The notes under the pieces: model-generated
The model's input: the letters and a program-made list of their open reading frames with translations, nothing else
What the model was told of the DNA's origin: nothing
Databases searched by the model: none
Part shown: piece by piece, positions 2,199-51,342 of the stretch
How positions within the stretch are numbered: position 1 is the stretch's first letter
How the letters are laid out: every line of letters begins with the position of its first letter
Assembly (NCBI GenBank): GCA_963575745.1
Contig: CAUYUJ010000269.1
Span: 62,001 to 116,052, forward strand
Direction: 5' to 3'
DNA length: 54,052 nucleotides
DNA from: Prorocentrum cordatum
Taxonomy: Eukaryota
Made by a program: the position numbers and the translations under genes

Positions 2199-2374
2199 TT
2201 GGCGGCGCGCACAAGGGGTTGGAGTGAGTGGGGTTGGGCTTCTCAGAAGGAGGCTGCTTCTCAGAAGGCGCCGGCCTTACGTCCATAGACAGGGCCCGCG
2301 CCTTCTGAGGAGCAGGGGTGCCTCTAAGGAGCCCTCCCCCCTGCCCCCCCCGCCCCCCGTCGGCGCGTGGCTGA
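2199..2374. mobile_element. TCGG-type MITE (CTTCTCAGAAG family)
   Basis: Decayed termini TTGGCGGCGCGC / GCGCGTGGCTGA; flanks CATGT / CATGC; homologous to 44591-44757. Confidence 0.7.
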
Positions 2375-2443
2375 CATGCAGCGGCGGAGGTGCCGAGCCA
2401 GGCGGCGGCCAGCCCGAACGGCGTGGCGCGGCGGGCGCCGCGC

Positions 2444-2487
2444 CTGGCCACCGCTCGCTGCGTCACCCCCGCCCCTGCGTCAGGGGC
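2444..2487 (-). CDS. Possible MYND gene exon 4 (APDAGAGVTQRAVA-R)
   Basis: C-rich CCGCCAG|GC acceptor in phase with the exon 3 donor and a CAG|GC donor; no domain motif to confirm it. Confidence 0.35.
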
Positions 2488-2719
2488 CTGGCGGGGGGGG
2501 GTCCACGCCCCCGGGTCGGGCAACGGCTTTCCTCCTCCTCCTCCTCCTCCGCCTCCTCCTCCTCCTCCTCCTCCTCCTCCGCCTCCTCCTCCTCCATCCC
2601 TTTTTCCTTCCCTTTTCCTTATATAAGTACCTCCTCCCTGCCTCACCCCGAGAGGTGCCGGCCGGGCGGGCCAGGCGGCTCGCCTGAAGACTCCCCTCCG
2701 CCGAGGATCCTGAGGCTCA

Positions 2720-3370
2720 AACTTGCAACAGCGGGCGGCGGGCGGGATTTGTTCTCAGAATGTGGCTCTCGCCAAAGCCCCGTGCACCTTCGCCCTAACA
2801 GCTTGCAGCAGCTTCACGGATGGAGGGCTGGTGGTTTTTCCAGCATGTGGCTCTCGCCTTGGCGCCGCGCACGCGCTTCGTAAAAGCAGGGGCTTCACAG
2901 ATGGAGGGCGGGTGGTTTTCAAAGTGTCGCTCTCGCCTTCGCCCCGCGCACATTCGTCTTAGAAGTTTGCAGTAGCTTCACGAATTGAGGTCGGTGCCTT
3001 TTCAAAATGTGGTTCTCGCCTTCGCCCCGCGCACATTCGTCTTAAACGTTCACAGCAGTTCCGACTATTCTTCTGGCTGACGTGGTGGACTGTCAGAGCG
3101 CAACAGTCACGTTGATCCGCGGTGTTGAAGTCCCACGAAAGGTTCTGGCACGATTCAGGACCGCCAGGACGCACCAGTAATGTTCATTCGCGGCGTGAGG
3201 TCCCAGGAATTGGTCTCTGACGCGGTTCAGGTTTTCCAACTGGTTGTCCTCCAAGGGGGCATTCCACACGAGTGAAGAGAAACCCTTGTAGGGAAACATG
3301 AAAAGGGAACTTGGAGGAAGGGCTGATTGCAATATCGTTGGTGAGCTTTGGGTTTGCACTGGTCCTCCCC
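2720..3370 (-). repeat. Inverted, diverged copy of the 15.05-15.95 kb element
   Basis: Same head (GAGGACCAGTGCAAACC), GGACTTCAACACCGCG block and GCGAGAACCACATTTTGAAAA units on the minus strand. Confidence 0.75.
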
Positions 3371-3656
3371 CTCCTGGTGATGAGGCGCCGAGCACCACCC
3401 GCCCGCAGGCGGCGACCCGCTGCAGCGAGCACATGCGATGAGAAGCAGGTGCTCCCTGCCGTGAGAAGCCATACCCCTGGACGCCCGAGGGAAACGGCCC
3501 ATGCCCCTCTCGGGGAGGGGGGGGGGGTCGGCCAGTGGGGCCCAGGCGACGCCCATGGGGATGCGAGTGGGGTTGGCTAAACGATTCTCATTCAGTGTTG
3601 CCTCAAGTCGGCAGGAGGAGTCTTCAAGAACAGCAAGAACATAGTCTCGGGCTTCA

Positions 3657-3900
3657 TGGGCCCTGGAAACGACAAGGCCGTTTTTTGACCGCTTCCGTTT
3701 TGCCGTTTTTTTTGCCGGTTCCGACGCCGTTTTTTACCGGTTCCGTCGCCGTTCTTATAAACGGGTTTCCGCTCCGGTTCCACTCCTGGAGCCGTTTTTT
3801 GTTGCCGTTTCTGGTCGCCGGTTTTTTTGCCATGTCCATTTTCAAGGGGCACTTTTTCGGAAACGGTGAAAAAACGGCCCTGCCGTTTCTGGGGCCCACT
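3657..3900. mobile_element. TGGGCCC-TIR MITE with internal CCGTTTTT repeats
   Basis: About 30-bp TIRs TGGGCCCTGGAAACGACAAGGCCGTTTTTT / AAAAAACGGCCCTGCCGTTTCTGGGGCCCA; second copy at 24545-24789. Confidence 0.75.
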
Positions 3901-4046
3901 GCGGTCTCGGGGCATGGCCGTCGTCCACCCTCCGCCTCCCTGCGGTGCCCCCCCCCCCCGGGCGCGTGCCCAGAGCCTCCCCCGGGGGCACTCCACGGCA
4001 GGACGGCTTCTGGTCCGGCGCGCCTGCTGCATGCAGTGCCTGCGTA

Positions 4047-4350
4047 TCGGGGATGGACAGAAACCCCTTTATCGGCGGTGGACAACCGAAACCGACGGAC
4101 CTGGACCCGCAAAAATGACGGCCGCGACGCCCTCTCGCGAACCGAAAACGGCCAATTCGCTAATCGACGTGTCAGGGTAGGAGGTCTGTCCACCCCCGAC
4201 TTTAGTGAAACGTGGTTTAGTGAAAACGACCTCGGGCCTAAACCTGGCGGGCGCGAGCATGGAAAGTGACGGCCGCGGCGCCCTCTCGAGAACCGAAAAC
4301 GGACAATTCACCAATCGACGCGTCAGGGTGAGGGTTCTGTCCACCTCCGA
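4047..4350. mobile_element. TCGG-type MITE (outer copy) containing a nested copy of the same family
   Basis: Terminal inverted repeats (TIRs) TCGGGGATGGACAGAA / TTCTGTCCACCTCCGA; flanks GCGTA / GAGTA. Confidence 0.75.
4072..4199. mobile_element. TCGG-type MITE (inner, nested copy)
   Basis: TIRs TCGGCGGTGGACA / TGTCCACCCCCGA; perfect 5-bp TSD CTTTA; its right half is similar to 4266-4350. Confidence 0.85.
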
Positions 4351-4662
4351 GAGTAGTGGCAGTCCTGCTGTAAAGAGCGGGGGGCTAGAATAACATCAAA
4401 CGTCCCGGATTGAAGGGCTTGTTTCCCCATAAGCAAGCACTTTGCAGTGCATGCTCTCCCCCGGGACCACGACGGGGAACCTCGGGGGGAACGGCCGCCT
4501 CGGGCGGCCAGCTCGGCGACGAAGGAGGGAACGCCTCACGGTGTTGCGCGAGAGGGCGTGGCGGCCTACCGCGGTGGCCTGCGCGAACTTGCAACGCGCA
4601 CACCACGCGGAGAGGAGGGCGCCTACGCGCGACCTCACGGTCGGGCGACGACGACGACGAGC

Positions 4663-4698
<36 letters not shown>

Positions 4699-5589
4699 AG
4701 CACGACGACGACGACGGCGACGAAGACGATGTTGACGACGACGACAGCGACGACGACGAGCACGACGACGACGAGCACGACGACGACGACGACGGCGACG
4801 AAGACGACGAAAACGACGACCACTACGACGACGTGTCTCAGCGGTGGCCCCGTCGACATTATGTTTCCTGTAAGCGGACAGCGTGCCGCTCCGATCCGCG
4901 GGGCGGGAGGCTGGCACAGGCTCGGGACGTGGATGCACCCAAGGCCAGGCTCACGGCGACGTTGCTTCACGGCGAGGAAGGAAGGCTGTAGGACATCACC
5001 AGCCACACTTTCCTGTACTGCCAGTCGGCGAACGCATCGAGCGAACACGACGCAGCGAATCGCAGGAAAGAGCGCGCGAGCTGCGCGCTCTCCCACGCCA
5101 CCGCAACCTGCGCCGCCGTGCGCCCGTCTGCGGGCCACGCGGCGGCGAGGTGCAGGCCTGAGCTGGCGGCAGGACACGCCTGGCAAGAGCTCCCGACCGC
5201 ACCTGCGGGCAGCCCCTGCGCGAACGCCTGCGCGGTCGACCCCGGCGGCCTGCGCCGCTCTGGCCGTCGCTCGGACGTTCACTCCCTGTGCTTTTGTTCG
5301 GTGTCGTGCGTGGCTTTTTTCGCCAAGTGATCCAGGATGCTCCTCGATGGTCCTCGCCGAAGGCAAAAGTGCTCCTCGATACTCCTCGCCGAAGGAAAAG
5401 GTGCACGCGTCCGAGCGATGCCAGGAGCCCGTGCGCGAACGCCTGCGCGGCCGACCCGGCTGCCTGCGCCGCTCACCCAAAGTCGGACGCCCGCCGGCGT
5501 CGACCACTGGCAGAGGGCAGAGCACGGGCAGAAAGGGCGCACGTGCGGGCGCCGAGAGGCCGAGCGCTGGCCGCAGCCCGCGCTCGGGA

Positions 5590-5675
5590 AAGAGCAGGAG
5601 CAGGAGCAGTTGCAGGAGCAGGGGAGCAGGAGCAGGAGCAGGAGCAGGAGTAGGAGCAGGAGTAGGAGGAGGAGT

Positions 5676-5706
<31 letters not shown>

Positions 5707-5804
5707 GGAGGAGGAGGAGGAGGAGGAGGAGGAGGAGGTGGAGGAGCCGGAGAGGAGCAGGAGCAGAGCAGGAGGAGGAGGAGGAGGAGGTTGGGAGAAG
5801 GAGG

Positions 5805-5839
<35 letters not shown>

Positions 5840-6427
5840 TGCGAGTAGGGGTAGTAGTAGGAGTAGAGTTGGAGGAATAGGAAGAGGAGGGGAGGAGGAG
5901 GAGGTGGAAGAGGAGGAGGAGGAGGAGGAGGAGGAGGTGGAGGAGCAGGAGCAGGAGCAGAAGCAGGAGGAGGAGGAGGTCGGGAGAAGGAGGAGGAGCA
6001 GGAGCAGGAGCAGGAGCAGGAGTGCAGTAGGGGGAGGAGGAGGAGTGGAATAGGAAGAGGAGGAGGAGGAGGAGGAGGAGGAGGAGGAGGTGGAGGAGTG
6101 GGAATAGGCATAGGCGGAGGAGGAGGAGGAGGAGGAGGAGGAGGAGGAGTGGGAATAAGAATAGAAGGAGGAGGAGGAGGAGGAGGAGGAGCTCTACTGA
6201 ACAGGTGTGGCCCTGTCGCGCCGCGGTTGCCTCGAGGTCCATGTCGCCCTCGCCCTTGCCCGCCTCGTCCCCGAGCGGAGCCGGCTTCTCCTCCGGCTTC
6301 CTGCACGTCCGCTTGTGGAATCGCCAATCCTCCTGGCGCGTCGGAATCGCCGCCATCGCCGCCGCCCACCGACGCAGTCCTCGATCGTCGTCGCCGCCGG
6401 CGCAACCCAGCGCCGTCGTCTTCAGCT

Positions 6428-6521
<94 letters not shown>

Positions 6522-6723
6522 GCTGTGGCCGCCGTCGTCGGTCGCCAATCGTCGAACTCAACCGTCATCGCCGTCGTCGGCATTGCCGCTGTCGCCACCA
6601 CCACCGTCGTCGTCACTGGTCGTCGTCGTCGTCGTCGGCGGCGGGGGCGTCGGCGGCGCTGTCGTCACCGTCGCCGTCGCAGTCGCCGTCGCCGTTGCCG
6701 TCGTCGTCATCGTCGTCGTCGAA

Positions 6724-6772
<49 letters not shown>

Positions 6773-6895
6773 TCGTCGTCGTCGTCGTCATCGTCCGTCG
6801 TCGTCAGCGGTCGTCGTCGTCGTCGTCATCGTCGTCAGCTGTCGTCGTCAGCCATTGTCGTCAGCAATCGTTGTCGGCGGTCGTCGTCATCGTCG
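5590..6895 (+). repeat. (GGA/GCAGGA)n and (GTC)n microsatellites bracketing MYND exon 3
   Basis: GGA tract at 5590-6190, GTC tract at 6428-6895. Other large tracts: (GAC)n 4646-4832, (CCT)n 7350-7676, (CCT)n 13580-13740, (GGA)n 19020-19360, 36290-36580, 37850-38085, (CAT/CAC)n 41900-42110. Confidence 0.95.
6231..6332 (-). CDS. MYND gene exon 3 ([34 protein letters not shown])
   Basis: CCAG acceptor; the W-x2-H-K-x2-C motif completes the MYND domain; probable GAG|GCAACC donor (3' boundary less certain). Confidence 0.85.
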
Positions 6896-9137
6896 CCCTT
6901 CCGCCGGCGTCCGCCGCGGAGGGGATGGCAACTCCTCCGATCCTCGAAGGCAAGGCCCTTCTTGGAACGCCTCACATCACTTTCGTGTCGCAGTGTCAGC
7001 TACACGCAAGAGTGACCCTGGGTAAGAGTGACCTTTGGTGCGCGGCTTTTTGGGGGCCGCGGGGAGGCCAAACCTGGGCGCGCAAGCCCCTGCTACCGCT
7101 TCGTTTTCAGCCATCTGGGGGCCCATCTGTGCCCGCACCAAAGGTCACTCCGGCGAAAGGTCACTCTTACGTCTAGTCGATAATGTGAACCTGCTTCTCA
7201 TCACAGGGGGGGGCGTCGGGCATCTCTGCAGAAGCCGTCTGGGAATCTGCGGCCCTCTGGGGGGCCACCGGAGGCCCGGCTCTGGGGACCGCTGAGGTCG
7301 TGGCCCGCGGCCGGGGAAAAAAACTTCACGGCTGCCCCGACCTGCTCACTACCTCCTCTCCTCTCCTCCTCCTCCTCCTCCTCCTCCTCCTCCTCCTCCC
7401 TCCTCCTCCTCCTCCCTCCTCCTCCCCCTCCTCCTCTCCTCCTCCTCCCTCTTCTCTTCTTCTCTTCCTCCTCCTCCTCCTTCCTCCTCCTCCCTCCTCC
7501 TCTCCTCCTCCTCCTCCTCCCTCCTCCCTCCTCCCTTCCTCCTCCTCCCTCCTCCTCCTCCCTCTCCTCCTCCTCCTCCTCCTCCTCCTCCTCCTCCTCC
7601 CTCCTCCTCCTCCTCTCCTCCTCCTCCTCCTCCTCCTCCTCCTCCTCCTCCTCCTCCTCCTCCTCCTCCTCCTCCCCCTTTTGCCCCGCAGACCATCGAT
7701 ATGGGCGGTGCTTGACTACGCTGCTGGATCGACGAGCTCCTGGGGCTGACCCAGGGTACGCCCTTCCTCGACAGTGCCTGGAGCAGTGGTTGAGGTGCTG
7801 GCTTGACTTCCCTCGCGGGCGGGAGCCTATCATGAAGGTCTGGCACGATGCCGTGCAGCAGTTCGTCCAGCTGGGCCCTCACCATCGAGCCAGGCATATC
7901 AGAGGACCGTTGACGGCGGTGATCTGCTTTTGGTGAACGCGGGGTGGGATCTCCTTCAACCTCACCTATGTTTCCCAGCTGGTGGATCTGATGGTGTCGA
8001 GGCTGATGGATGGTCTTCTGGGTCGGTTGAGTTCGAGACGTTCGATCAAGCCAGAAGGTTGGTCGACAACTTCTCACCCTGCAGAAGCGACAATGGAAGG
8101 ATGTTGCCAATTCTTATAATGGAGGCGGCGTGGAGGATGGAGTGGACAATTTCAGCTTGAGACGTCATGTTTTGCCTGGAGCAAGTACCAGAACACAGAC
8201 GGCAACTACGTAAATTGGTGCTCACGATTACTGTCGGAGGCTCATGGCCCGCTTCCAAGAAGAGCGAAACTGGCTACCCTGAACCAGCGAGGCTGCCGCC
8301 AGTGTGGGTCGCACACGAGACTCTCTTGCACCAGCGTGGCAGTGTGCGAGTGATCCAGGGTCGTCAGCGTTCGAAGCACCTGAGCATGTAGTTGCGCGTG
8401 CGTGTGTTCAGGCAGAAAGTTGACATTTGGCTGAGAGGGCTGACTCCCAGTGACGTGACCGAGCCAGAACCCTCAGGCAAAGATGACGTGTGGGTTCGCA
8501 GTCACCCGAACGGCGAAGACCTGCCCTCTCGTTTTGGCGAAGGGTGACCACGAGCGGCCCCCCTGCTTTTGCCTGGTAAGGCGCCCGGCCGATCGGGCGC
8601 CCTCGATACTGGGCGTAGGCGGGCAGGAGTCTCCACAGCGGCATGCCCAGAGGCCCAGAGCCCCAGCCAGGGAATGAGCGCAGCTTCATCTACGGACCCG
8701 TGCCGGGGCGGCATCAAAGCGTCCCGAGGGGTGAGCTATTCCGTATGCCGTTGCCTCTATCGCTACATACTCTAGAGGCCCCTTGGCTTTCGTTGCTGAC
8801 AGCGGGGGAGAGTGTAGGGGATACTGGGCGAGGCTTCATGAGGCCCCTCAAAGTCCCAATTCGGATATGAGGTGGAATCTTCAAAACTCCATGCAAACGA
8901 CGGACCGTCAGCCTGGTGACATTGCGGTGCCCGTGGGTCGTAAGTTGTCGGGGATCCCTCTCGCTGGCAACATGTTTGGGGACAATTCTCGTGGGAATTG
9001 CCTCCAAATATTTCCCCACATGTTTGGTCGTGGGGTTTTGGTGTTCTTCCCACCGGCGTCGCACCCACGTCTTCCTCACATCTCCCTCTTCCCTTTTCCC
9101 TATCCTCCCCTTCCGTTTTCCCTCCACCCACACTGCT

Positions 9138-9224
<87 letters not shown>

Positions 9225-12200
9225 TACACACACCATACAACGCTAGTGCACGTCTGGCCTGTTCACTGCATCATACACTCAAGGCGTATGCACAACAGAC
9301 TGGGCACCCACATGAGACACACGTCCCGAAATGGCCGCACACGCCTCATATACATACACATGACATGCCATATGCAAGGCGTGCGTTTGGGATTCGCAGT
9401 GCATGGCAGGCGTGCCACTTCCTCGACACAAGAGGAAGCGCACAACGCGTGGCAAGCGTGGCACTTCCTCGATATCGTAAGGGGGAGCGCTGGGGTTTCG
9501 GGCTCGCCAAGTGTGACACGCGCGGCATTTTCTCGACGTTACAAAAGGGGTGCCATGGGGAGCGGTCGCTACCCGTTTCGGGCTCGCAAAGCGTGGCAGG
9601 CGTTGCACTTTCTAGACGCCAACGAGGGCGCAAGGGATGCGGTCGCTATCCGTTCCGGGCTCGCCAAGTATGGCAGGCGTGGCACTTCCTCGATGCTGCA
9701 AAGGGGGGCGCTGGGGGTGCGGTCGCTACACGTTTCGGGCTCGCCAAGTGTGGCAAGCGTGAGTTTATCGGCGTTGCAGGGGGTGTCAAGGGGGTGCGGT
9801 CGCTATCCGCTTCGGGCTCGCAGAACATGGTTGGCGCGGCACTGCGTTGACGCCACAAGGGGTGCCTTAAAAGGTGCGGTCGCTATCCGTTTCGTGCTCG
9901 CAATGCGTGGCAGGCGTGGCAACGTATCGACGTTGCCGGGGGTGCCACGGAGGTGCGGTCGCTATCCGTTCCGGGCTGGGAAAACGTGGAAGGGTCGACA
10001 TTTCCTCGATGCCACAACTGGGTGCGCTGGGGGTGCGGTCGCTATCCGTTTCGGGCTCGCCAAGTGTGACACGCGCGGCATTTTCTCGACGCCAAAGAGG
10101 GCGCAAGGGGTGCGGTCGCTATCCGCTTCGGGCTCGCCGAATGTGGCAGGCGTGGCATTTCCTCGATGCTGCAGAGGGGTGCGCTGGTGGTGCGGTCGCT
10201 ACCCGTTTCGGGCTCGCCAAGTGTGGCAGGCGTGACAGCTCATCGGCTCACAGGGGGTGTCATGGGGGTGCGGTCGCCATCCGTTTCGAGCTCGCAAAAC
10301 ATGGTTGGCGCGGCACTGCGTTGACGCCACAAGGGGTGCCTTAAAAGGTGCGGTCGCTATCCGTTTCGTGCTGGCAATGCGCGGCAGGCGTGGCAACTTA
10401 TCGACGTTGCGGGGGTGCCACGGAGGTGCGGTCGCTATCCGTTCCGGGCTGGGAAAACGTGGAAGGGTCGACATTTCCTCGATGCCACAACTGGGTGCGC
10501 TGGGGGTGCGGTCGCTATCCGTTTCGGGCTCGCCAAATGCGGCACGCGCGGCATTTTCTCGACGCCGAAGAGGGCGCAAGGGGTGCAGTCGTTATCGGTT
10601 TCGGGCTCGCCAAGTGTGGCAGGCGTGGCACTTCCTCGATGCTGCAAGGGGGTGCGCTGGGGGTGCGGTCGCCATCCGTTTCTGTGGCAAGCGTGAGTTT
10701 ATCGGCGTTACAGGGGGTGTCATGGGGATGCGGTCGCTATCAGTTTCGGGTTCGCAGAGCATGGTTGGCGCGGCATTGTATTGACGCCACAGGGGGTGCC
10801 TTAAGGGGTGCGATCGCTATCCGTTTCGGGCTCGCAAGGTGTGGCAGGCGTGGCAACTTATCGACGCTGCTGAGGGTGTCACAAAGGTGCGGTCGTTATC
10901 CGTTTCGGGCTGGGAAAACGTGGCAGGGGCGACACTTTCGCGACGCCACAAAGGGGGTGCGCTGGGGGTGCGGTCACTATCCGTCTCGGGCTCGCCAAGT
11001 GTGGCACGCGTGGCATTTTCTCGACGCCAAAGTTGGCGCAGGGGGTGCGGTCGCTATCCGTTTTGGGTTCGCCTGCCCCGCCGCGGCGTGCGCCATCCGC
11101 CTGCCCACCGCGTCGAGACTCGTACGCCGTCCGCTTGCCTACCTACAGCCCCGCTCTCTTCCGTGGTCGCCATGGCTCAGGCTGCTGTTCGCACGGCGCG
11201 TCACTCTCCCAAGGCTTGACCGGCGTCACCAACGGTATCGGCGGGGCAACGGCCACCAGCACCAGTCTCGCATGTTCCACTCCAGCTATCATCACTCCAG
11301 ACATAACATCAGTATGTGGGGTCCCTCGGTAGCGTAATTTGCTGTCCCGAGCGCTCAGAGGAATAAACTTCTGCAGGTCGAGAACGACGCTCGGTTGATT
11401 AGGAAAAGATATGAGCTCTTTGGCCGCGAACAAGGGTGATGGGAAAAAAGTCCGGCGCCCATCCGTCTGCTGCCGGTCCCTCCCCCGCCTTCGAAAGCGG
11501 TTGCCCCCGTCCAATTCCAAGCGCACCCGTCTGAAGTGCAGGACGCGGTGTTCCAGGTGTCAGGGCTCGGCCACAAAGGCTGGCCAGGGCCAACTGGCTC
11601 TCCACAGAGTGCTCTGATCTCGTGTCCATGTCCGATCATCGTTCTAAGATTCCTCGGGATCGTCGTTTACGTCTCGCTGGGGGTGTGGTCCATGATATCC
11701 ACTCGATGGTTCATAAGGTTACACTTTCGCTGCAGTTTTGTCAGGAGTGTGGGCGTTACAGCCAGCTTGAACTTCGTGGACTTGCGAGTGGTCGTTCGGC
11801 TCGTCAAATCCCACCTAGCCCTTTAACGGAGTCACGGCGGGAATGTATTGACCATATTTCGCGAGACTTTTGGCCAAAAATTGTCAGCAAGGCTGAGAAG
11901 GCGGCTCGGAATCATGAACCGAAGACGCCTACGGCGAATCACCGCCGTCCCTTGCACTTTGGAATCGTCCATGAGGCCGAGCGTTGTGGCCAAAGCGCTG
12001 CCAAGCTATCGGACAATGTGTTCCCCCAGCCGTTGTGGAACCCCTTGGGACACTTGGGGGAGGATGACGGAGAAGACCAGGAGAAGGAGGATGGGGAGGA
12101 GGAGAAGGAGCAGGAGGAGGAGGAGGGGTCATCTTGGGAGCCTCTGGGGGCACTCTTGGGGCCTCCTAGGAGCTTCCCGGGCGCCTCTTGGAGGTACGTA

Positions 12201-14066: not shown

Positions 14067-14100
<34 letters not shown>

Positions 14101-15051: not shown

Positions 15052-15950
15052 GGACCAGTGTAAACCGTTTACCCAATATTCATCAACGATGTTGAAATAC
15101 ACCCTCTCTCCAAGATCCCTCTTCGTAGGCCCCTATAAAAAGTCAGCTCCACTGAAAAATTGGCCCGTTGGGGGACAGCCGTGGCAAAACACAATTCTCG
15201 GGACTTCAACGCCACGATAAAGCCTGACTGGTACGTCTTGGCGATCGTGCACCGTCCCAGAACACCGTCCTGGGGACTTGAACACCGCGACGCGAATCAA
15301 CGCAACTGTTGCGCCTGGACAATCCTGAACCGCTCCAAAAACACGAACATGATTAAAAAAAACGCCCCGCTTTGAATTATAGACGCTCCTCAATCTGTTA
15401 GAAACGAATGCGCGCGGCGCTAAAGCGAGAAACCACATTTTCAAAACGAACCACCCTCAATCCGCGAAGCTCTGGCAAGTGCGTAAAACGGATGTGCGCG
15501 GCGCTAAAGCGAGAGCCACATTTTGAAAACGACCGGCCCTCAATCCGCAAAGCTCCTACAATCCAAAAGAATGACTGCGCGCGGCGCCAAGGCCGAAGCC
15601 ACATGTTGAAGACGACCCGCCCTCAATATGTGAAGCTCTTCCACATGTTGAAACGAATGTGCGCGGAGCTAAAGCCAAAGCCACATGTTGAAAACAACCC
15701 GCCCTCAATACGTGAAGCTCTTTCAATGTTTTAAACGAATGAACACGGCGCTGATGCGAGAACCACATCTTGAAAACGATCCGCCCTCAATCCGTGAAGA
15801 ATGTGCACGACGAGGATGCGAGAACCACATTTTGAAAACGAGCGGCCCTCAATCCGTGAAGCCCTGGCAACTTGTTCGAACGAATGTGCGCGGCGCTACA
15901 GCGAGAACCAGATTTTGAAAACCACCCGCCCTCGATCTGTGAAACTGTGG
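15052..15950 (+). repeat. Dispersed element: GAGGACCAGTGTAAACC head plus a tandem array of about 82 bp
   Basis: Units GAATGTGCGCGGCGCTAAAGCGAGAACCACATTTTGAAAACGACCCGCCCTCAAT...; inverted relative at 2720-3370. Confidence 0.8.
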
Positions 15951-17011: not shown

Positions 17012-17165
17012 GGTCGGGCATGTCCTCCTACAGGCGGATTCTGGAAGACACATTCAAAACACTCACAAACAAGTCGCAGCTTATCAAAAACAGTCGAGAT
17101 GGCGTCCCCAGACTACTTCTTCTACTGTTCTCGAATGCTCCTCCTGCAGAGGGACGCGCCCGACT
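17012..17165. mobile_element. RGTCGGGC-family MITE
   Basis: GTCGGGCATGTCCTCCTACAGG ... CCTGCAGAGGGACGCGCCCGAC, followed by TTTAA. Confidence 0.75.
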
Positions 17166-23923: not shown

Positions 23924-24544
23924 TACCCCCCAGGATGCACAAGAGCACCCAACAAACACGAAGAACACTAGGGTACCCTCCACGAACCGACCTCGATCGT
24001 GTACCTCGGTCCGACTGTAGAGTAGGGGAAAGAGGGGGAAGGGGAGGCGGAAGAGGAGAACGAAGGTGGAGGAGGGGGCGTCCTGCACAGCTGCGGCCAG
24101 GTGGGCGGAGCCGAGGAAGAAAGGGCAAGAGGAACCTAAGGGCGAGAATGCTGAACTCTGTGAGCAAAACCCACGGTGGCTCAAGAGGTTTGGCCTCTTG
24201 GGGGCCTCCTTGGGCGGACGTTTGAAGCCCTCCTGGGGTGTATTTGGGTCATCTTGGTCACTCTTGGAGCGTCGGAGCCTGAGAAGGCCAGAACGCCGAA
24301 ATCTGTCAAAAACTGGCGGGAACTCAATGGACATCTTGGGGCGCTCTTGGGTGGCCTCTTGAAGCCTTCTTGGGGTGCGTTGGGGTCCTCTTGGGCCGCC
24401 CTGGAGCGTCGGAAGCCCGAAAAGGCGAGACCGCTGAAATCTTAAAACCAACAAGAAAAACCGTAGGGGTTCACGGAGCTGGGCCTCTTGGGGCCCTCAC
24501 TAGGTGGTCTCCTGGGGTCTCCTTATGGTACATTGGGGTCCTTA

Positions 24545-29557: not shown

Positions 29558-29756
29558 TCGGTGGCGAGCGAGGGGGAGAAGTGAGAAGCAGAAGGCCTTT
29601 TCAAAAGGCGGCGGCGCTTTTCAGAAGCCCTCGCGCCTTCTGAAAGGCTTGCTGTGTCTCCGAGGGGGAGGCCCAGGAAACTTCTCAGAAGGCTGGGGGA
29701 CTTCCGAGCCTTCCGAGAAGCCCGCCCCTTCTCACTTCCCCCTCGCTCGCCGCCGA
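29558..29756. mobile_element. TCGG-type MITE
   Basis: About 30-bp TIRs TCGGTGGCGAGCGAGGGGGAGAAGTGAGAAG / CTTCTCACTTCCCCCTCGCTCGCCGCCGA; perfect 5-bp TSD AAGAC. Confidence 0.85.
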
Positions 29757-30069
29757 AAGACGACACAAGCGGGCCCAAAGGGCCCTTCAAGAGGCCCCCG
29801 ACATAAGAGAACAACAAATAGTTAGGTAATGGGAGAGGGAGGCAGGAAGAGAGACGCATGACGACATGGCACGCCTGGGGCGTAGCGGCCAGAGCGATGA
29901 TCACCGCTGCTGGTTCGGATACTGCGCCCGAGCGCCATGGACATCTGATGAAAATCCGGCGAAGCGGTGTTCGCAGTCAAGCCGGCCTACGAGGACGTAA
30001 GTGGGCAGCGGCGACAGAACCGCTGGCGGCGCCGCGCCCGAAAGTAGACGGTGGCGATGAAGAAAAAAA

Positions 30070-42500: not shown

Positions 42501-45500
42501 CTCCTCCTCCTCCTCCTCCTCCTCCTCCTCCTCCTCTTCATCCTCCTCCTCCTCTTCCTCCTGCTCCTTTTTTCCTTAACCCCCCCCCTCGTCTCCCTCC
42601 TCCCCTGGGCTATCCATGATCCCTTTCCCCAGCCCTGATCATGCTGCTCCTCCTCCGACACACAACCCCACTAAATCGAAACCTCCGAAAACATCCGGCC
42701 GCCTTTCTAGGACTCAACGCATTCGGGCAGCCGACGAGCACGCCTGTCCCCCCTTTTCCCAGCCGACGGGATCCGCATGGCAGCACTGGCGTGGCTGCCC
42801 AGCCAGAGGTACGACGACGCCGGCGATGAATCGATCGTGGCCAGGCCCACCCTGGGTCCAGGCATCGGTTGCTACGCCCAGGTCCTGCAGCGCGACGGGA
42901 TCACAAGGGTGCGCGGCAGGGATGCAGGGCTCTCGGACGCCCAGATCGACGCCGACGCGGAAGCCCCGTGGCCCGTGGCTGCGGGCCAGGCTCTTGCGTC
43001 TAGCTCTGGGTCGGGCATGTTTTCCTACAGCCGGATGTTGCAAGAGGGATGACCAGTGTCAAGCATGCGCAAGCAAACCATCAAAAGAGCACGGAGAATC
43101 GTCCCCATACTGGTTTTTCACTATGCCTGAACACTCCTCCTGTAGAGTTGTGGATGCCACGGCAATGGACACCCTCACAGTTAGGCCCTAACAGTCCTAT
43201 CATTGAATTAGAGATGTGTTTAGAAGGTCGGAAAAATGTCCTGACAATGTTTAAAGCATGTGGTTGACATACCTAAAACATGTTTGGAGCATTCTTCAGA
43301 CATCTGGAAAGTGTTTGGCAGCATGCTTCCTCTCTCGACTTCCACAACTGTAGAGGGACACGCCCGAACGCCCGCCCGCCCGGTGGGCAGCGCAAACTCA
43401 GCGACGCGAAAGGGGCCGGGGGGGGGGACTTTTCATGGCTTTGAAGCCCCCCTCTCGAAAAACCAATCTTGGCTGCGAAAAGGAAGGGAGGGGGCATGGC
43501 TTCCGACGCCCCCCGCCCCCCTTTTTTTGAAGGGGGGAGGGGGGGGCTTCAAGGCTCAAGGCTCCGCTCGGCAAGAGCACTCCTCCTCCTCCTCCTCCTC
43601 TTACTCCTCCTCCTCCTCCTCTTCCTCTTACTCCTCCTCCTCCTTCTCTTCCTCCTCCTCCTCCTCCTCCTCCTCCTCCTCCTCCTTGACGAAAGGATTT
43701 CCGCGCGAGCGCACCGCCGGCCCGCTGCGCGGGCGGAGCAGGGGGGGCGCGCCGGGGGGGGGGGGGGGGGGGGCGGAACGGGGCAGGGAGGGACAGAAAG
43801 GGGCCCTGGGACACGCACACACAGATAGGCACAAATGCTAGGAGTCCCCTATCGTTTCCCCTAAATGTTCTGGGCTGTCGTCTTCCCCCCCCCGCCGCCC
43901 CTATTTTCCCAAAGCTTTCCTGGGAGTCGACGATGAATGGTGTCTGTCGGGTGCTTTCCCTCCTGAAGGGAGGGGACCAAGGCTCCCCCCCCCGTGCCCC
44001 GGAGTTGTGCTGCTCCCGTCGTACTCAAGGACCACATAATTACCAGACACAACTTCGAGCACCTAGACAAGTAGCGAAGCAATGTCGAGGACCACATGCC
44101 AGACACAATTTCGAGCAACAAATATTGAAGCAGTGTCGAACGGGCACTGCCTCCCGGGGCCCGACGCATGAGCAACCTCCAGTCTCGGTGCTTCCCTGCT
44201 GCTCGAAGTTCTTCCTGGCGATCAGCTGAAGTAGGTTTAGGGTTTAGGGTTTGCCCGCAAGGCGGCCTTTAAAGAAAAGGCGGCCTCTTCATACATCCCA
44301 TGCCGCTTTTTCTAAAATGCGTCTTACATCGCGACAGAAGCGTTAGAGGCCACGGGGGCCGTTGGGGCACGATTGATGCCCATGTTTGGCCTTCCTGTGG
44401 AACGCCATAGCCCCAAAGGTCTACCGTTGATGCTTGCTCTCTCCCGACCCGTGAAGGGCAACACACGCCCGTCGGAAGGAGCAGGCAACAGCAGGAGGAC
44501 GGGAGGCGGGTCGAGAGGATCGGGTCTGGGCCTCGGGGCCCTCCCGGGGAAGAACGCAACACAGCGAAAGCAGATCGGCTCTTGAAGTGCTCGGCGGCGC
44601 GCACAGGGGGGCGGACGGAGGGGGGGGCTTCTCAGAAAGAGGCTGCTTCTTAGAAGGCACCGGCCCTATACCTATACATAAGGCCCGCGCCTCTAAGAAG
44701 CAGGGGTTCTTCTAAGAAGCCCTGCCCCCTCCCCCACCCCGCTCTGCGCGTGGCTGAAATACCACCGAAAGCATGATTAAGAAAAGTGTCCTTTGAGAAA
44801 CCTGGGCCAGCTTTCCCGACCTTTCTTAAGACAAGCCTAGGCCAAGTGCTCGCGCGCGTGAACGCTGGAGGGGCGAACGCGCGCAAGAAACTGGGCCAGG
44901 TTTCTGGCAAGTCGGCTTGGAAACGCTGGCCTAGCTTTTCGGGAGGAGGTTTCTTAATCATGTGATCGACTGTAGGAAGGCGCTTGGAATATACTGGGAT
45001 CTGGGAATCCAAGAATACGCGTGTACTCCTCCTGATGGCCATGCTTGACTGCACTCAGGCTTGCCCAGGGCCGGTGCAGGTGCACGGCTGGCGAAGCTGG
45101 CACGCGCGGAGGAGGCTGCGGTGGAAAAGGACCTCACCAGACCCACCGCCAACCTGGAACAGTGGGGGGAGGGGGAGGCGTTGACAGACGAATGTGGCAC
45201 AGGAGGAGGAGGAGGAGGCGGAGGAAAGGGAGGAGGAGGAGGAGGTGTCCGCTATTTTCGCCGAGGCCTGCGTGGCCCTGCCGGGCTGCCCCCGGGTCTG
45301 CCATGGGGCCCGTGCGGGGGCACGGCCGGCCCCCCCGCCGAGGAGGGGCGGGGGGCCGCGCCGAGGCGCGATCGGACCTCCTCTTGGCCTCCAGCTGCCG
45401 CGCCGCCTCGCGCAGCAGGCCCCCGAAGTCGATCGTGGCCGTCGCCGCCTCGAGGCGCGCGTGCGCCGCCGCCGCCGCCGCGGCCGTCGCCGCGCGGTCG

Positions 45501-46442
45501 CTGCGCGGTCGCCGTCGCGCGCGTCGTCTGTCGCCGTCGTGGCGCCGCCGTGGTCGCCGCCGCCGCCGGACAAGAGGGAAAGACGACGGCCGGTGGTTCA
45601 GAGGTGGGGTCCCAGGGACGAGGAGCCTCAAACAGCGCACATCTACCCGTGGATCCTTTCCTATCCTTAGGACCCCGTCCCTCAGGATCCCACCTCTGAA
45701 CCACCGACACGGGCGCTCGTCTCGCGATGCTGGCTGCCCCCCCGGGGGCGGGGGCGCGAAGCCGATCCTGGTAGTCCGCCGCCGCGGGGGCCCACCCCCC
45801 AGAGGCCATCGAGAGAGGACCCTCTGGGAGGAGCGGCGGGTCCTGGGGCAGATGTGTCGTCGCGCCGCTTGTGCTCGACGCGCCCAGGTGGACGACGCCG
45901 ACACCACTGCAGACCCACGGCGAGCCCTGTGTCCCGCGCCCCACAAGGACGAAGACAAAGCCAACACCGCGGCAAGCCCCACGGCAAACCCGCCGCGCCC
46001 GAGGCGGAGTGTGCCCTCGCGGCCGCGGCGCCCTCCCCAAGACGCAGGGCCGCGCGTCGCAAGGGACGGCGCGGCGACACTGGAGCCACGGCAGCCGCCG
46101 ACGAGATGTGCTGTTGTTTTTGCGACGCGCGGCCCCCGAAGTGCCGACCCCTTTCCCGTGGTCAGTGCTTCGCCCTGGACCGATTCTTGATGGTCCTGGG
46201 GCCCGACAGCGGGCCCCAGAGGCCGAAACCATGGCGGACCGTCCGCATTGACGAAATCATGCATCCTACCCTTGGGGGGTTCGAGAGCCCGGGGGGGGCC
46301 CACAGCGTCGGGCGGGGCCGCGCCTCGCCCGCCTGCAGCGTGCGGCTGAGGTCTGGGCGGAGTGGCCATCCGTGCCTGGACTGCTCGAGCTGGCGTCGTT
46401 CGCGGAAACGTGTCTGCACCCACGGCCTCATGGGCCGGGCCC
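36010..46442 (-). CDS. Tentative multi-exon gene of unknown function; candidate exons 46442-46376, 45500-45381, 44214-44151, 42884-42813, 40609-40487, 36045-36010
   Basis: Islands of protein-like, GC3-rich codons bounded by AG acceptors and GC/GA/GT donors. They can be joined in frame (...TIDFGGLLREAARQLEAKR-KNFEQQ...; DLGVATDAWTQGGPGHDRFIAGVV; PYLEWNLPRERSERVFMNRGKLDVELQSVLRSHIADVE-DATKHRELLTM*). No recognisable domain. Confidence 0.4.
36937..37580 (+). repeat. Diverged direct repeat of about 270 bp (period about 372-378 bp)
   Basis: GCGACTGAA.TGG, TTGTGCGCTACGGT, CTGCTGGCTCGC and TATGTCATGTCGG.ACGCCCCGT occur in both copies. Confidence 0.8.
38265..38790 (-). repeat. GGGTCGCG-array element copy
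   Basis: On the minus strand ACCGTAGCACCCCGCAAT...GAAGCCTGCCGCAGG...AAACCAATGTGGGTAGGTCGCG, then the array. Confidence 0.8.
40487..40609 (-). CDS. Exon of the unknown gene (APYLEWNLPRERSERVFMNRGKLDVELQSVLRSHIADVE)
   Basis: Strongly protein-like, GC3-biased segment ending at a GAG|GACGCG GA donor. The acceptor is either TAG (exon starts 40609) or CAG (exon starts 40604). Confidence 0.55.
43009..43368. mobile_element. RGTCGGGC-family MITE interrupted by the TTGTGGA element
   Basis: Left end GGTCGGGCATGT..CCTACAG; right end CTGTAGAGGGACACGCCCGA. Confidence 0.7.
43148..43347. mobile_element. TTGTGGA-type non-autonomous DNA transposon, 8-bp TSD, nested in a GTCGGGC MITE
   Basis: TIRs TTGTGGA / TCCACAA; CTGTAGAG on both sides, duplicating part of the host's right TIR. 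Confidence 0.88.
44236..44252 (+). repeat. Short interstitial telomere-like (TTTAGGG)2 run
   Basis: TTTAGGGTTTAGGGTTT. Confidence 0.5.
44591..44757. mobile_element. TCGG-type MITE (CTTCTCAGAAG family)
   Basis: Termini TCGGCGGCGCGC / GCGCGTGGCTGA; flanks AGTGC / AATAC; homologous to 2199-2374. Confidence 0.7.
44772..44962. mobile_element. Foldback element
   Basis: Perfect 13-bp CATGATTAAGAAA / TTTCTTAATCATG ends, with imperfect symmetry throughout. Confidence 0.65.
45381..45500 (-). CDS. Candidate exon (DRAATAAAAAAAHARLEAATATIDFGGLLREAARQLEAK)
   Basis: GCAG acceptor, helical protein-like translation, AG|GA or AG|GT donor in phase 2. Confidence 0.45.
45590..45707. mobile_element. TCGG-type MITE
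   Basis: Perfect 18-bp inverted repeat CGGTGGTTCAGAGGTGGG / CCCACCTCTGAACCACCG; flanks GACGG / CACGG. Confidence 0.8.
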
Positions 46443-47220: not shown

Positions 47221-47259
<39 letters not shown>

Positions 47260-47389: not shown

Positions 47390-48920
47390 ATCCTAGGGAA
47401 TCCTTAGGGCACCCTTGAGAATCCCTAGGGGATCCATAAGAATCCCTAGGGAATCCCTAGGGAATCCATAAGAATCCCTAGGGAATCCCTAGGGACTCCC
47501 TAGGGAATCCTGAAGGAATCTCTAGGGAATCCTTAGGGAATCCCAAAGGAATCCCTAGGGAATCCTTCGGGAATCTTTAAGAAATCCTTCAAGAATCCCT
47601 CGGGGATCCTTAGGGAATCCTCACGAATCCCTCGGGCATCCTTGGAGAATCCTTAGGGGATCCTCAAGAATCCCTCAGGGATCCGAACGGGATCCTTGCG
47701 GAATCCTTAAGAATCCTTCAGGAATCCTTCAGAATCCCAAAAAGGAATCCTCAATAATCCACAGGAAATGCCTATTGAATCCTTAAGAATCCCGAGGGGG
47801 TCCTCAAGGAATCCTTAAGAATCCCTCAGGAATCTTTCAGAAACCCGAGGGAATCCTTAAGACTCCCTGGGGAATCCCTAGGGACTCCTGAAGCATCCCT
47901 AAGGAATCCTTTGGGAATCCTTCAGGGATCCTTGCGGAATCCTGAGGAATCCCTGAGGAATCCTTGAGAATCTCTAGGGGATCCTGAAGAATTCCTAAGG
48001 AATCCTTGCGAACCCCTAAGGAATCCCAAAGGAATCACTAAGGAATCCTTACGAATCCTTCAGGAATCCTTAAGATTCCCTAGAGAGTCCCTCGGGAATC
48101 CTTAAGAATCCAGAAGGAATCCTTGCGGAATCCTTGCGGAATCCTTAAGATTCCCTGGGGACTCCCGAGGGAATCCTTAAGAATCCCCTGGGAATCCTTA
48201 AGGAATGCGGAATCCTCAGGGACTCATTAAGAAACCCTAGGGGATCCTCCCGGAATCCTCAGGGAATCCATAAGAATCCGTAAGGAATCCCTAAAAGGAA
48301 TCCTTAAGAACCCCTGGGGCATCCTTCAGAAGCCCTCAGGAATCCTTGGGGAATCTTGAAGAATCCCTAAGGACTCCTTAGGGAATCCTTAAGAATCCGG
48401 GAATCTTCAAAGAATTCTTAAGAATCCATCAGGAATCTTTAAGAATTCCGAGGGTTTCCTTAGGGAATCCTTAGGGAATCCTTGGGAATCCTTAGGGAAT
48501 CATTGAGAATCCCTAAGGAACCATCAAGAATCCACAGGGAAGCCTCAGGGAACCCTTAGGGAACCGAGGAAATCGTTCAGAGTCCCGAGGGAACCCTCCG
48601 GGAATCCTGCAGAATCCATATGGGAATCAAAAAAAAATCCCGAGGGAATCCGTTGGGAAACCTTAGGGATCCCGAAGGAATCCTTTGGGAATCCTCAAGG
48701 CATCCTTTAGAATCCCTGGGGGATCCTTAAGAATCCTTACGGTATCCTTATGGAATCCAGAAGAAGCCCTAAGGTATCCTTACAGAATCCTCAAGAATCC
48801 AGTAGGTATCCTTGGGGACTCTCTAAGAATACCTAGAAGGTATCATTAAGGATTCCTTCCATATCCCTCAGGGGTTCCTAAGAAACCCTACGGAACCCTT
48901 AAGAAGCCCTAAGGTATCTG
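47390..48920 (+). repeat. Degenerate 10-11-bp GAATCCYTAGG satellite
   Basis: GAATCC recurs every 10-11 bp for about 1.5 kb. Confidence 0.92.
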
Positions 48921-48964
48921 TAGTATGGACATGAGTAATGGTAATCGACATAGTGATTGAGGTG

Positions 48965-49038
48965 TAGCACTAGTAGTAGTGTCAGCAGTATTAGTAGAAG
49001 CAGTACCCCAAAAAAATGTAGTGGATGCACTAGCACTG

Positions 49039-49070
<32 letters not shown>

Positions 49071-49083
49071 CGTAGTCGTAGTC

Positions 49084-49117
<34 letters not shown>

Positions 49118-49574
49118 CAGTAGCAGTAGTATTAGTAGTACTAATGCATTCGTAATAGTAGCAGCAGAAGCAGCAGTAGCTGTACAAGCAGTAATACTAG
49201 TAATAGTTGTAGTCGTCGTAGTAATAGTAGAAGCGGTATTCGCAATAGTAGTAGTAGTAGTAGAACTACAAGTATCAGTATCAGTCGTGATAGTAGTAGT
49301 CGTTGCAATAGTACTAGTGGCAGTGGGAGTAGTATTAGTAGTGGAACTAGTCGTAGTAGTAGTATCAGTAGTAGTAGTCGTAGTCGTAGCAGTAATAGTA
49401 GTGGCCGTGGTGGTAGTAGTAGTAAGACTAATATAATTGTTGTTTTTGCAAAAGTAAATGTAGAAATGCTAACAGTGGCAGTGGTAGCGGTGGCAGTGGT
49501 GATGGTAATGGTGGCAGTGGTGGTACCATTTGTAAAAATAGTAACACTAGTAGTAGTAGTAGTAGTAGTAGTAC

Positions 49575-49607
<33 letters not shown>

Positions 49608-49675
49608 AATTAGTAGTAGTAGTAGAAGTAGAAGTAGTAGAAGTAGTAGTAGTAGTGGCGGTCGCATTCGTAGTG

Positions 49676-49720
<45 letters not shown>

Positions 49721-49748
49721 CTAGTAGTATTAGTACTAGTACTAGTAC

Positions 49749-49793
<45 letters not shown>

Positions 49794-50047
49794 TAGTAGT
49801 AGTAGTAATCGTAGTAATAGTAGAAGTAGTAGTCGTCGTCGTCGTAGTCGTTGTCGTAATCGTATCAGTAATAGTAGTAGCCGTGATGGTAGTAGTAGTA
49901 AGAACAAGAATGGTTGTTGCTGTTGTAAACCAGAGTGTAGTAGCAATAACATTGGCAGTGGTGGTAGTACTAGTGGTAATGGTAGCACTGGTGCAAGTAT
50001 TGACGAAAAACAAATAGCAGCAGTAGTAGTAGTAGTAGTAGCAGCAG

Positions 50048-50138
<91 letters not shown>

Positions 50139-50157
50139 CGTAGTCGCAGTCGTAGTC

Positions 50158-50203
<46 letters not shown>

Positions 50204-50208
50204 CAGTG
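48965..50208 (+). repeat. (TAG)n compound microsatellite
   Basis: About 1.2 kb of degenerate GTA/TAG triplets. Confidence 0.95.
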
Positions 50209-50880
50209 GTACAAATTATAAAAATGAAGAGGATGACGGGGGGGGACGATGAGGAGGATCGGGAGGGGGAAGAGCACACACGCACACACGCACATACGCA
50301 CACGCGCACACACGCACACACACACACACACGCAACCCCCCATGGGGTTGCGTTGTGTTGTGTTGTGTTGTTCGCCCCCCCCCCCTCCTCTCTCCCCCCC
50401 GGGGGGGCCTGCCCCGCCTGTATCAACAACAACAACAACACCAACACCAACACCAACACCACCAACAACAACAACAACTACGCAACAAGCAGAATTCTCA
50501 CCACGAGTCCCTTATTCAGCCACGCACCCAGGAACAACGAATGACCATTCGGCCCCCTCGCTCGGACGAATCGGAACTCTCTGATAATCGGTGGGCGTGG
50601 AGGATGTATCGGGAGCCGCGGCCGTTTCAGAGCGTTCCCGAACACTCGTGCTGGAACGCTCTGGAACGGATTGATCTCAATCCTAGGCCCGTCCGACGTA
50701 TCCACGGAATCACGCCCCGGAATTCAGACCGCGAGGGCGCGGACGGTGCACAGGCTCGCGGCTCGCAGGGTCGAGAGCCCCGCGGGCCCGCGCCGGGAGT
50801 GGGCCACGCGGCGTCGTAAGCCTGCGGGGCGCGAGCGTCGATTACGCCGCCGACGCCGCCGCCGACGACGACGACGACAA

Positions 50881-50914
<34 letters not shown>

Positions 50915-51151
50915 GCCGACGGCGACGGCGACGCCGACGACGACGACGACGCCGATGCCGACGCCGACGCCGACGACGACGCTGACGCTGTGGCCATCCA
51001 GGCCCTAGGATGGTCGAGCGCGAGTGCCTCGCGGGCTTCGCACGCAGGGGCCTCTCGCCCAGCCCCAGGCACCCTGCGCTCCCGCCGGGGATCCTTCGCT
51101 GCGGCCGCACGGTCTCGGCCCTGCCCCCGCACGAGTGGGGACGCGCATCAA

Positions 51152-51342
51152 TCGGGAGCGGCCAAGAGGGGGGTGACCAAGAGGGGGGGGTGCAAATCAT
51201 GACCGGCGGCATGTGCGCGGCCCAGCGGGGGGCCAGGGACGTAATGAAGTAAGAAGAGGCGCCATGAGATCTGGGGAAATATCATGGCCTCCGCCATGAT
51301 ATCCACCCCCCTAGTCATCACCCCCCTCTTTTCCGCCCCCGA
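51152..51342. mobile_element. TCGG-type MITE
   Basis: Imperfect TIRs TCGGGAGCGG..AAGAGGGGGGTGA / TCACCCCCCTCTTTTCCGCCCCCGA; perfect 5-bp TSD ATCAA. Confidence 0.8.

Follow-up and report, generated by a model that had tools for sequence, protein, structure and literature searches.

Miniature inverted-repeat elements sharing TCGG...CCGA ends and 5-bp duplications in Prorocentrum cordatum

The window analysed here is a stretch of 54,052 nucleotides from the dinoflagellate Prorocentrum cordatum. It is repeat-rich and contains much low-complexity DNA, with tandem repeats covering 16.6 kb, and its G+C content of 60.6% compares with a published value of 59.7% for P. cordatum (PMC10666404). Domain searches of the window's ORFs recognised no genes around the elements described below. 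Pfam searches found no transposase domain in the 299 ORFs of at least 100 aa from the whole window, nor in 44 shorter ORFs at 40300-46200, so that the ORFs examined bear out the claim of the first-pass annotation that the window holds no autonomous partner. Seven MITEs, 118-199 bp in size, had been proposed, and when re-checked on the sequence all of their coordinates and flanks were as given. Positions are quoted without strand. The window also holds MITEs with 8-bp duplications (families H and K), whose ends differ from those of the TCGG set; their presence indicates that several DNA-transposon systems have been active in this genome.

Three of the seven elements are flanked by exact 5-bp TSDs. 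MITE A-in (4072-4199, 128 bp) has TIRs matching at 12/13 positions, the ends TCGGCGGTGGACA / TCGGGGGTGGACA, and the TSD CTTTA/CTTTA at 4067-4071 and 4200-4204. MITE B (29558-29756, 199 bp) has TIRs matching at 19/20 positions (TCGGYGGCGAGCGAGGGGGA) and is enclosed by AAGAC/AAGAC at 29553-29557 and 29757-29761. MITE C (51152-51342, 191 bp; TIR 21/24) lies between the two copies of ATCAA/ATCAA at 51147-51151 and 51343-51347. In the other four elements, 3-4 of the 5 flanking bases match. MITE A-out (4047-4350) measures 176 bp without the A-in copy that is nested within it; its TIRs match at 16/19 positions, its ends are TCGGGGATGGACAGAA / TCGGAGGTGGACAGAA, and its flanks GCGTA / GAGTA agree at 4/5 bases. 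MITE D (45590-45707, 118 bp) carries CCGG/TCGG ends (CCGGTGGTTCAGAGGTGGG / TCGGTGGTTCAGAGGTGGG), TIRs matching at about 18/19 positions, and the flanks GACGG / CACGG (4/5). The remaining two are MITE F1 (2199-2374, 176 bp; ends TTGGCGGCGCGCACA / TCAGCCACGCGCCGA; flanks CATGT / CATGC, 4/5) and MITE F2 (44591-44757, 167 bp; ends TCGGCGGCGCGCACA / TCAGCCACGCGCAGA; flanks AGTGC / AATAC, 3/5). A possible eighth element, candidate G, lies at 51986-52164 (179 bp; ends TCGGTGGCAAC / TCGGTAGCAAA) as a single copy within the 54-kb window. The sequence CGAGGC occurs in both of its flanks with a one-base offset between the sides, which makes its TSD ambiguous.

The terminal tetramer is TCGG at 10 of the 14 ends, and the others are one base off (CCGG, TTGG and, twice, TCAG). 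Beyond the tetramer, the ends have the motif TCGGNGGYG in common. With candidate G counted in, the terminal motif is found at 12/16 ends and T is the first base at 15/16. Past about nine terminal bases, the TIRs diverge between families. Family F carries TCAG at its 3′ end, and only 12/16 positions pair with the 5′ end.

To compare this pattern with chance, TCGG...CCGA pairs lying 40-700 bp apart were collected as inverted-repeat pairs, of which the window contains 15. Three are flanked by an exact 5-bp duplication, and for lengths of 2-4 or 6-10 bp no exact duplication occurs at any of the 15. As a control, the right flank was shifted by 1-20 bp: 18 shifts gave no duplication and two gave one. 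When all 256 terminal tetramers were considered and tandem repeats excluded, 6 of 1113 pairs had a 5-bp duplication. TCGG accounted for 3 of its 13 pairs, versus 3 of about 1100 for all other termini, and was the sole tetramer with more than one such pair. In 100 dinucleotide shuffles, TCGG pairs occurred at a mean of 4.1, with zero duplications overall. Chance does not account for the combination of TCGG ends and 5-bp duplications. Within the window, the TCGG pairs thus exceed both shifted and shuffled controls, in agreement with the earlier claim that the end tetramer, or a one-base variant of it, and the duplication length are shared. The three exact TSDs contain only 4 G/C among 15 bases in a window of 60.6% G+C (P = 0.008), which fits a target preference.

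Evidence for insertion as such comes from the A-in site. Paralogous contigs provide three joints across it, with net skips of 133, 133 and 131 bp, and 133 bp corresponds to 128 + 5, i.e. A-in plus one TSD copy. Each joint is carried by one contig, with 23-24 nt on the short side and 80% likeness. Joints of this kind may arise from repeats, and at the A-in site repeats are the intended source. Outer-type peptides (three or four, including P0003, P0006 and P0007) run uninterrupted across the site, and P0004, a copy of the A-in type, shows homology from the TCGG end onwards. The empty-site check for 4072-4199 therefore recovers copies of the host repeat that lack A-in and exactly 5 bp; the joints are thin, and the peptides agree with them.

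Copy boundaries were also located. F1 and F2 are 80% identical and form one family, in which homology ends exactly at both proposed termini. In run X1, the contig depth over F1 is 2252-3373 in the bins of 2173-2354, compared with 0 in 2082-2172 and 1.4 in 2355-2445. The boundaries of family F are thus set independently by two-copy homology and by the X1 depth step. For A-out, the summed contig depth in the same run is 15057-39752 in the bins over 4084-4356 and 0 from 4357 on. Five peptide relatives of A-out, with 73-78% identity, were found, as well as one within an SHMT gene model of Prorocentrum cordatum. C has nine, and in 7/9 the conserved block ends at the codon with the CCGA end, after which the sequences diverge mutually. 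Relatives of A and C carry the label Prorocentrum cordatum (P0011, P0016/P0018, P0019) or stem from a EukProt set. These labels agree, if indirectly, with a host close to P. cordatum; one labelled source bears a green-alga name, at odds with the other. Multiple copies of families A, F and C exist elsewhere; B and D each occur as a single copy within the window, and a one-frame protein search returned no relatives of B.

One could suppose that the elements never transposed and are structural hairpin repeats or inverted repeats arisen by chance. Repeats abound in the window, and chance does produce weak, G+C-rich inverted repeats whose flanks match; the three 5-bp-duplication pairs with termini other than TCGG are of this G+C-rich, weak type. 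This reading is contradicted by the pair statistics against controls, by the empty sites of A-in and by the coincidence of copy boundaries with element ends, and we rejected it as extremely improbable.

BLAST comparison sorts the interiors into five groups (A, B, C, D and F), where the first-pass annotation had counted at least four families. A-in and A-out belong to the same family, their 3′ 88 bp being 86% identical. An internal palindrome, CTTCTNAGAAG, is common to B and F, and B has three CTTCTNAGAAG-like motifs. CTTCTNAGAAG is matched 13 times in the window, where 1.6 matches are expected, and 10/13 lie within F1, B and F2. Judged from these shared motifs, B and F are related. Such internal likeness also bears on whether several unrelated transposases could have arrived at TCGG ends and 5-bp TSDs by coincidence or convergence. 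The divergence of the TIRs beyond the outermost nine or so bases would fit this, as would the many mobilisation machineries that coexist in one dinoflagellate, Polarella (10.1101/2020.10.14.339549). However, the three families with perfect TSDs all have TCGG...CCGA ends and are also alike at positions 6-9, no other tetramer among the 256 recurs with the 5-bp duplication, and B and F share internal motifs. We consider separate, unrelated enzymes improbable, and infer instead that a single enzyme lineage may serve all the families.

Our data indicate, with a probability of roughly 80%, that the elements are gene-less MITEs of at least four to five families, with TCGGNGGYG ends and a 5-bp TSD, most probably moved in trans by cut-and-paste transposition. 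The inverted repeats, the fixed TSD length, the terminal motif, the empty sites of A-in, the multi-copy state of A, F and C and the lack of coding capacity are observed directly. In this probable mechanism, the shared TCGGNGGYG ends would be recognised by a DDE-type transposase whose gene lies at another place in the genome, and which would transpose the elements in trans by cut-and-paste. Integration would proceed through cuts staggered by 5 bp, giving the 5-bp TSD, at target sites that may lean towards A+T.

To which type this enzyme would belong can be approached through known ends and duplication lengths. Transib ends have the form CACNRTG, a typical hAT end is YARNG, and Ginger elements end in TGT..ACA. 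Miniature derivatives are common in hAT, and most miniature elements that are initially unassigned end up in known superfamilies. The elements resemble Transib in combining a 5-bp TSD with TIRs, but their TCGG...CCGA ends are unlike the CA..TG ends of the Transib/CMC group (PMC12730594). Transib had been taken as the familiar superfamily with 5-bp TSDs; this premise proved too narrow, since hAT5 and Polarella elements also produce duplications of 5 bp or 5 nt. The elements share the 5-bp TSD with hAT5; hAT5, however, is assigned to a hAT lineage of animals (PMC12730594). TCGGN does not fit YARNG. Nor do the ends resemble those of Ginger.

The closest likeness is to Polarella. Its elements, like ours, are gene-less, about 100-200 bp long and present in many copies and several families in a dinoflagellate, with inverted ends, a 5-nt TSD and a transposase that lacks a certain assignment. 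By description, the elements of the window are of the same kind as the Polarella introner-like elements with 5-nt duplications. There are differences. The miniature intron-forming elements of Polarella class 12, which have a 5-nt duplication, begin with C (10.1101/2020.10.14.339549, Roy et al.), whereas nearly all ends here begin with T. The Polarella elements are also defined as introns whose splice sites derive from NAGGH/NNAGG duplications, while AGG is found in the TSDs of 0/7 elements here. Within P. cordatum itself, "introner elements" with inverted repeats of 8-20 nt and direct repeats of 3-5 nt near the intron ends have been read as non-autonomous DNA transposons (PMC10666404). This pattern would fit our elements if they lay inside introns; that survey is a generic count of an intron pattern, and no families, end motifs or fixed TSD length were found in the part of it consulted. 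The elements are thus real and ordinary, and their general kind is already known in dinoflagellates.

It seems fairly likely that they belong, as non-autonomous elements, to an already described superfamily and have an unusual TSD length or unusual ends, the candidates being, in order, PIF/Harbinger-like, then hAT5-like, Transib/CMC or Ginger. In supplementary file 8 of PMC12130899, seven Polarella families with 5-bp duplications (fam25, fam61, fam8, fam19, fam34, fam89 and fam92) are tentatively filed as PIF/Harbinger, and a family from Amoebophrya that likewise duplicates 5 bp is placed under Ginger. The 5-bp duplication of hAT5 (PMC12730594) and the 8-bp-duplication MITEs, which show several DNA-transposon systems in this genome, point the same way. 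On the other hand, the PIF/Harbinger filing is itself tentative (PMC12130899), and the mismatched ends and the animal placement of hAT5 count against the other candidates.

The first-pass annotation had instead suggested one abundant transposase and an unclassified system. A lineage that is still unclassified, whether as a superfamily of its own or as a new deep branch, is in our view unlikely, if slightly less so than several unrelated enzymes. In its favour, TCGG...CCGA ends are unlike both the CA..TG ends of the EnSpm-Mirage-Chapaev-Transib group and Kyakuja and the TAYGG ends of IS3EU (PMC12730594); the elements of Polarella class 12 start with C instead (10.1101/2020.10.14.339549), and no description of TCGG...CCGA ends was found in the literature searched. 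Against it, terminal bases and TSD length vary inside known superfamilies, with duplications of 5-8 bp in hAT and 0-3 bp in Harbinger relatives (PMC12730594). The usual fate of unassigned miniature elements speaks against it as well.

Taken alone, the finding is ordinary repeat annotation. Its wider interest is that dinoflagellate genomes are huge and repeat-rich, with an intron load that stems partly from miniature transposons, few of which have a known enzyme. On both strands, the elements read T...A directly beside the 5-bp TSD, so that insertion at NNAGG would give a GT...AG intron in either orientation. A speculative extension, to which we give little credence, is that an unclassified transposase lineage moves the TCGGNGGYG families; if true, these would generate introns in both orientations, in a dinoflagellate whose introns are very long and rich in elements. 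One sharp end motif together with one TSD length offers a practical handle on such families, and the motif could serve to retrieve full-length copies and identify the transposase, to date bursts and to find out whether these families make introns too.

Re-reading of the sequence reproduced the coordinates and flanks of all seven MITEs reported in the first-pass annotation. Three of them are bordered by perfect 5-bp target-site duplications: A-in (4072-4199; CTTTA), B (29558-29756; AAGAC) and C (51152-51342; ATCAA), whose inverted ends match at 12/13, 19/20 and 21/24 bases, respectively. Flank identity is 4/5 for A-out (4047-4350), D (45590-45707) and F1 (2199-2374), and 3/5 for F2 (44591-44757). 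An eighth candidate, G (51986-52164), carries the same kind of ends and an ambiguous duplication. The tetramer TCGG is found at 10 of the 14 ends of the seven, the remainder being CCGG (once), TTGG (once) and TCAG (twice), and alignment of the ends gave the common motif TCGGNGGYG. A-in is nested in A-out, and the two belong to one family with 86% identity over the 3′ 88 bp. Similarity between F1 and F2, at 80% identity, breaks off exactly at the claimed termini. The interiors, previously assigned to at least four families, form four to five groups by sequence, B being related to F because both carry the internal palindrome CTTCTNAGAAG. This palindrome has 13 matches in the window where 1.6 would be expected, and F1, B and F2 together account for 10 of them. 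A further inverted-repeat element of ~190 bp, ATGATTAAGAAA...TTTCTTAATCAT, was observed directly after F2 (44773-44962).

The association of TCGG ends with 5-bp duplications was compared with chance in several ways. An end-blind scan for inverted repeats, with tandem repeats excluded, returned 542 pairs in the window, among which 3 had an exact 5-bp flank duplication. Two of these 3 have TCGG ends, from a total of 8 such pairs. When the end motif was used for the search, 15 TCGG...CCGA pairs were found at 40-700 bp; 3/15 showed an exact 5-bp duplication, and none of the 15 had an exact duplication of 2-4 or 6-10 bp. Displacing the right flank by 1-20 bp as a control gave no duplication at 18 shifts and one at each of the other two. 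Across all 256 terminal tetramers outside tandem repeats, 1113 pairs yielded 6 with a 5-bp duplication. TCGG accounted for three (3/13), and the other three, in CGCG (1/26), TGGC (1/4) and AGCA (1/3) pairs, are weak and G+C-rich. In 100 dinucleotide shuffles, TCGG pairs averaged 4.1 and duplications were absent; the Poisson estimate for the excess is 7e-6. The three perfect duplications hold G or C at 4/15 bases (P = 0.008), which hints at an A+T-leaning target.

Further copies were sought in sequencing run X1, which contains 12% of the words sampled from window positions 1-10000. Contigs were aligned to 1900-4600 at 80% likeness, and 8866 were placed. Summed contig depth, which according to the alignment tool is not a copy number, reached 2252-3373 in the two bins of F1, with 0 and 1.4 in the neighbouring bins, and 15057-39752 across 4084-4356 for family A, with 0 past 4357. 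These steps show both A and F to be highly repeated, with similarity that stops close to the claimed boundaries. Seven differences between F1 (at 2244-2322) and the majority of X1 contigs are listed; at each of them the window has C or G where the other copies have T or A. F2 matches the T/A state at some of the seven. The pattern may stem from different subfamilies or from a directional bias in substitution.

Empty sites, which the first-pass annotation had proposed as a check, were present in X1 as paralogous contigs that lack A-in. Joint 4071->4209 skips 137 bases and inserts 4 other letters (net 133 bp), joint 4069->4208 skips 138 and inserts 5 (net 133 bp), and joint 4067->4210 skips 142 and inserts 11 (net 131 bp). 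Since 133 bp corresponds to the 128-bp element plus one copy of the 5-bp duplication, we read these joints as paralogous empty sites. Each joint is represented by one contig with a short side of 23-24 nt, a length it cannot exceed because A-out has just 25 bp to the left of the A-in insertion. That A-in inserted into an already existing repeat, paralogues of which are empty, is established. Runs X2 and X3 leave the stretch uncovered or nearly so and carry no weight for or against. Metagenome matches to two internal family A patterns (0, then 10) were dismissed as chance; they are ~20 bp each, in contigs of 35-52% G+C.

Translated copies were also found among predicted proteins. The family A ORF has five peptide relatives with 73-78% identity. 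Mapped back, P0003, P0006 and P0007 run unbroken across the A-in insertion point, as does P0005 in a different frame, and in P0004, a copy of the A-in type, similarity starts at the TCGG end. A longer match, P0019, is a partial serine hydroxymethyltransferase model (PF00464) that carries a terminal family A segment. For the family C ORF nine relatives were found, and in 7 of the nine the conserved block stops at the codon containing the CCGA end, beyond which they diverge from one another. The similarity of P0011 to C begins at the opposite end of the element. The family B ORF, searched in one frame, gave no relatives.

By source label, P0011, P0016/P0018 and P0019 are from Prorocentrum cordatum, and P0008-P0010 and P0013, together with P0004 and P0005 (as Pyramimonas_sp.), from a EukProt set that bears the name Pyramimonas sp. 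CCMP1952; ENA and MERC also occur as labels. Six A or C relatives (P0004, P0005, P0008-P0010, P0013) are filed under a green alga, the other labelled ones being P. cordatum gene models; P0018 bears both the P. cordatum and the Polarella glacialis name. The host is probably a dinoflagellate near P. cordatum, with which the green-alga name disagrees. Protein numbers in the EukProt set exceed 450,000, and its label and content may be at odds. P0011, glycoside-hydrolase-like as judged by eye, and P0019 are partial P. cordatum gene models that read C-terminally into copies of families C and A, respectively. Either these MITEs are located within or beside genes, and perhaps inside introns, or the models overrun into them.

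Two other MITE families occur in the window. Family K (3652-3903 and 24541-24792; ~252 bp, ends CTTMNTGGGCCC) has two copies with 78% identity, both flanked by perfect 8-bp duplications (GTCTCGGG at 3644-3651 and 3904-3911; TTGGGGTC at 24533-24540 and 24793-24800), and X1 depth over the first copy is ~1000-1500. Family H has ends TYARG-TCGGGCMTGTCC...CTACAGG and three copies, with a fragment near 53327-53367. A perfect 8-bp duplication, TGCCAAGG, flanks the copy at 52979-53209; those at 51771-51919 and 17014-17163 show none. H was ruled out as a member of the TCGG group, as its TCGG occurs 5 nt into the inverted repeat and its duplication is 8 bp.

A 5.7-kb candidate at 40412-46101, with TCGGCGGC ends and a CGAGA/CGAGA duplication, was taken as chance. 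Its inverted repeat matches at just 10/11 bases, its ORFs of at least 40 aa contain no transposase domain, and by our own arithmetic ~0.1 such pairs are expected among 81, at ~0.0015 per pair. No Pfam family exceeded its curated cut-off in 299 window ORFs of at least 100 aa, nor in 44 shorter ORFs within 40300-46200. Rfam matched no family in the window, and a protein atlas query with an exon-like ORF returned no usable match.

The window has 60.6% G+C and includes a run of 100 N. Tandem repeats and microsatellites occupy ~16.6 kb of it, among them arrays with units of ~80 (9495-11073), 90 (25205-25931), 77 (28055-29272), 90 (53569-54052) and 11 bp (47390-48813) and a 1.2-kb GTA microsatellite (49039-50211). 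According to the TRF consensus, the two 90-bp arrays are apparent reverse complements of each other. An 83-bp tandem repeat (2755-3173; relatives on the opposite strand at 15402-15943) has the highest summed X1 depth, up to 43947, and many joints of variable register, which mark it as a major satellite of the genome.

The elements were initially compared with Transib only. The CA..TG ends of the Transib group (PMC12730594) indeed do not fit TCGG-ended elements, but the same source lists hAT5 as also making 5-bp duplications. The closest published analogue is from a dinoflagellate, the introner-like elements of Polarella glacialis, of which a preprint (10.1101/2020.10.14.339549) describes 15 classes, their duplications being 3, 4, 5 or 8 nt long. 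Elements of class 12 duplicate 5 nt and begin with C, whereas the elements described here start with T; the motif TCGGNGGYG is a further difference by description. Among 24 of the 78 Polarella rows in supplementary file 8 of PMC12130899, 5-bp families are tentatively placed in PIF-Harbinger from a terminal profile, and the file classes one Amoebophrya family, whose duplication is also 5 bp, as Ginger. In the literature searched, we found no description of the motif.

Our data establish inverted ends, a fixed 5-bp duplication, no coding capacity and, for A, F and C, many copies. A transposase encoded elsewhere would recognise the common ends and integrate the elements via cuts staggered by 5 bp, a single enzyme lineage probably acting on all families, and the B and F palindromes are possible subterminal binding sites. 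The first-pass interpretation holds in part, for real elements that share one terminal-motif group and 5-bp duplications, and its unclassified system is a candidate reading; the prior background, with hAT5 and Polarella, is less empty than it assumed. PMC10666404 gives the P. cordatum genome a G+C content of 59.7%, higher than in any other dinoflagellate compared there, and describes its 'introner elements' as abundant. The Polarella elements are introner-like, whereas the window elements were not seen as introns: A-in offers no G[T/C/A]...AG at any offset, and AGG is absent from every duplication. A really new transposase lineage, possibly making introns in both orientations, seems improbable to us.
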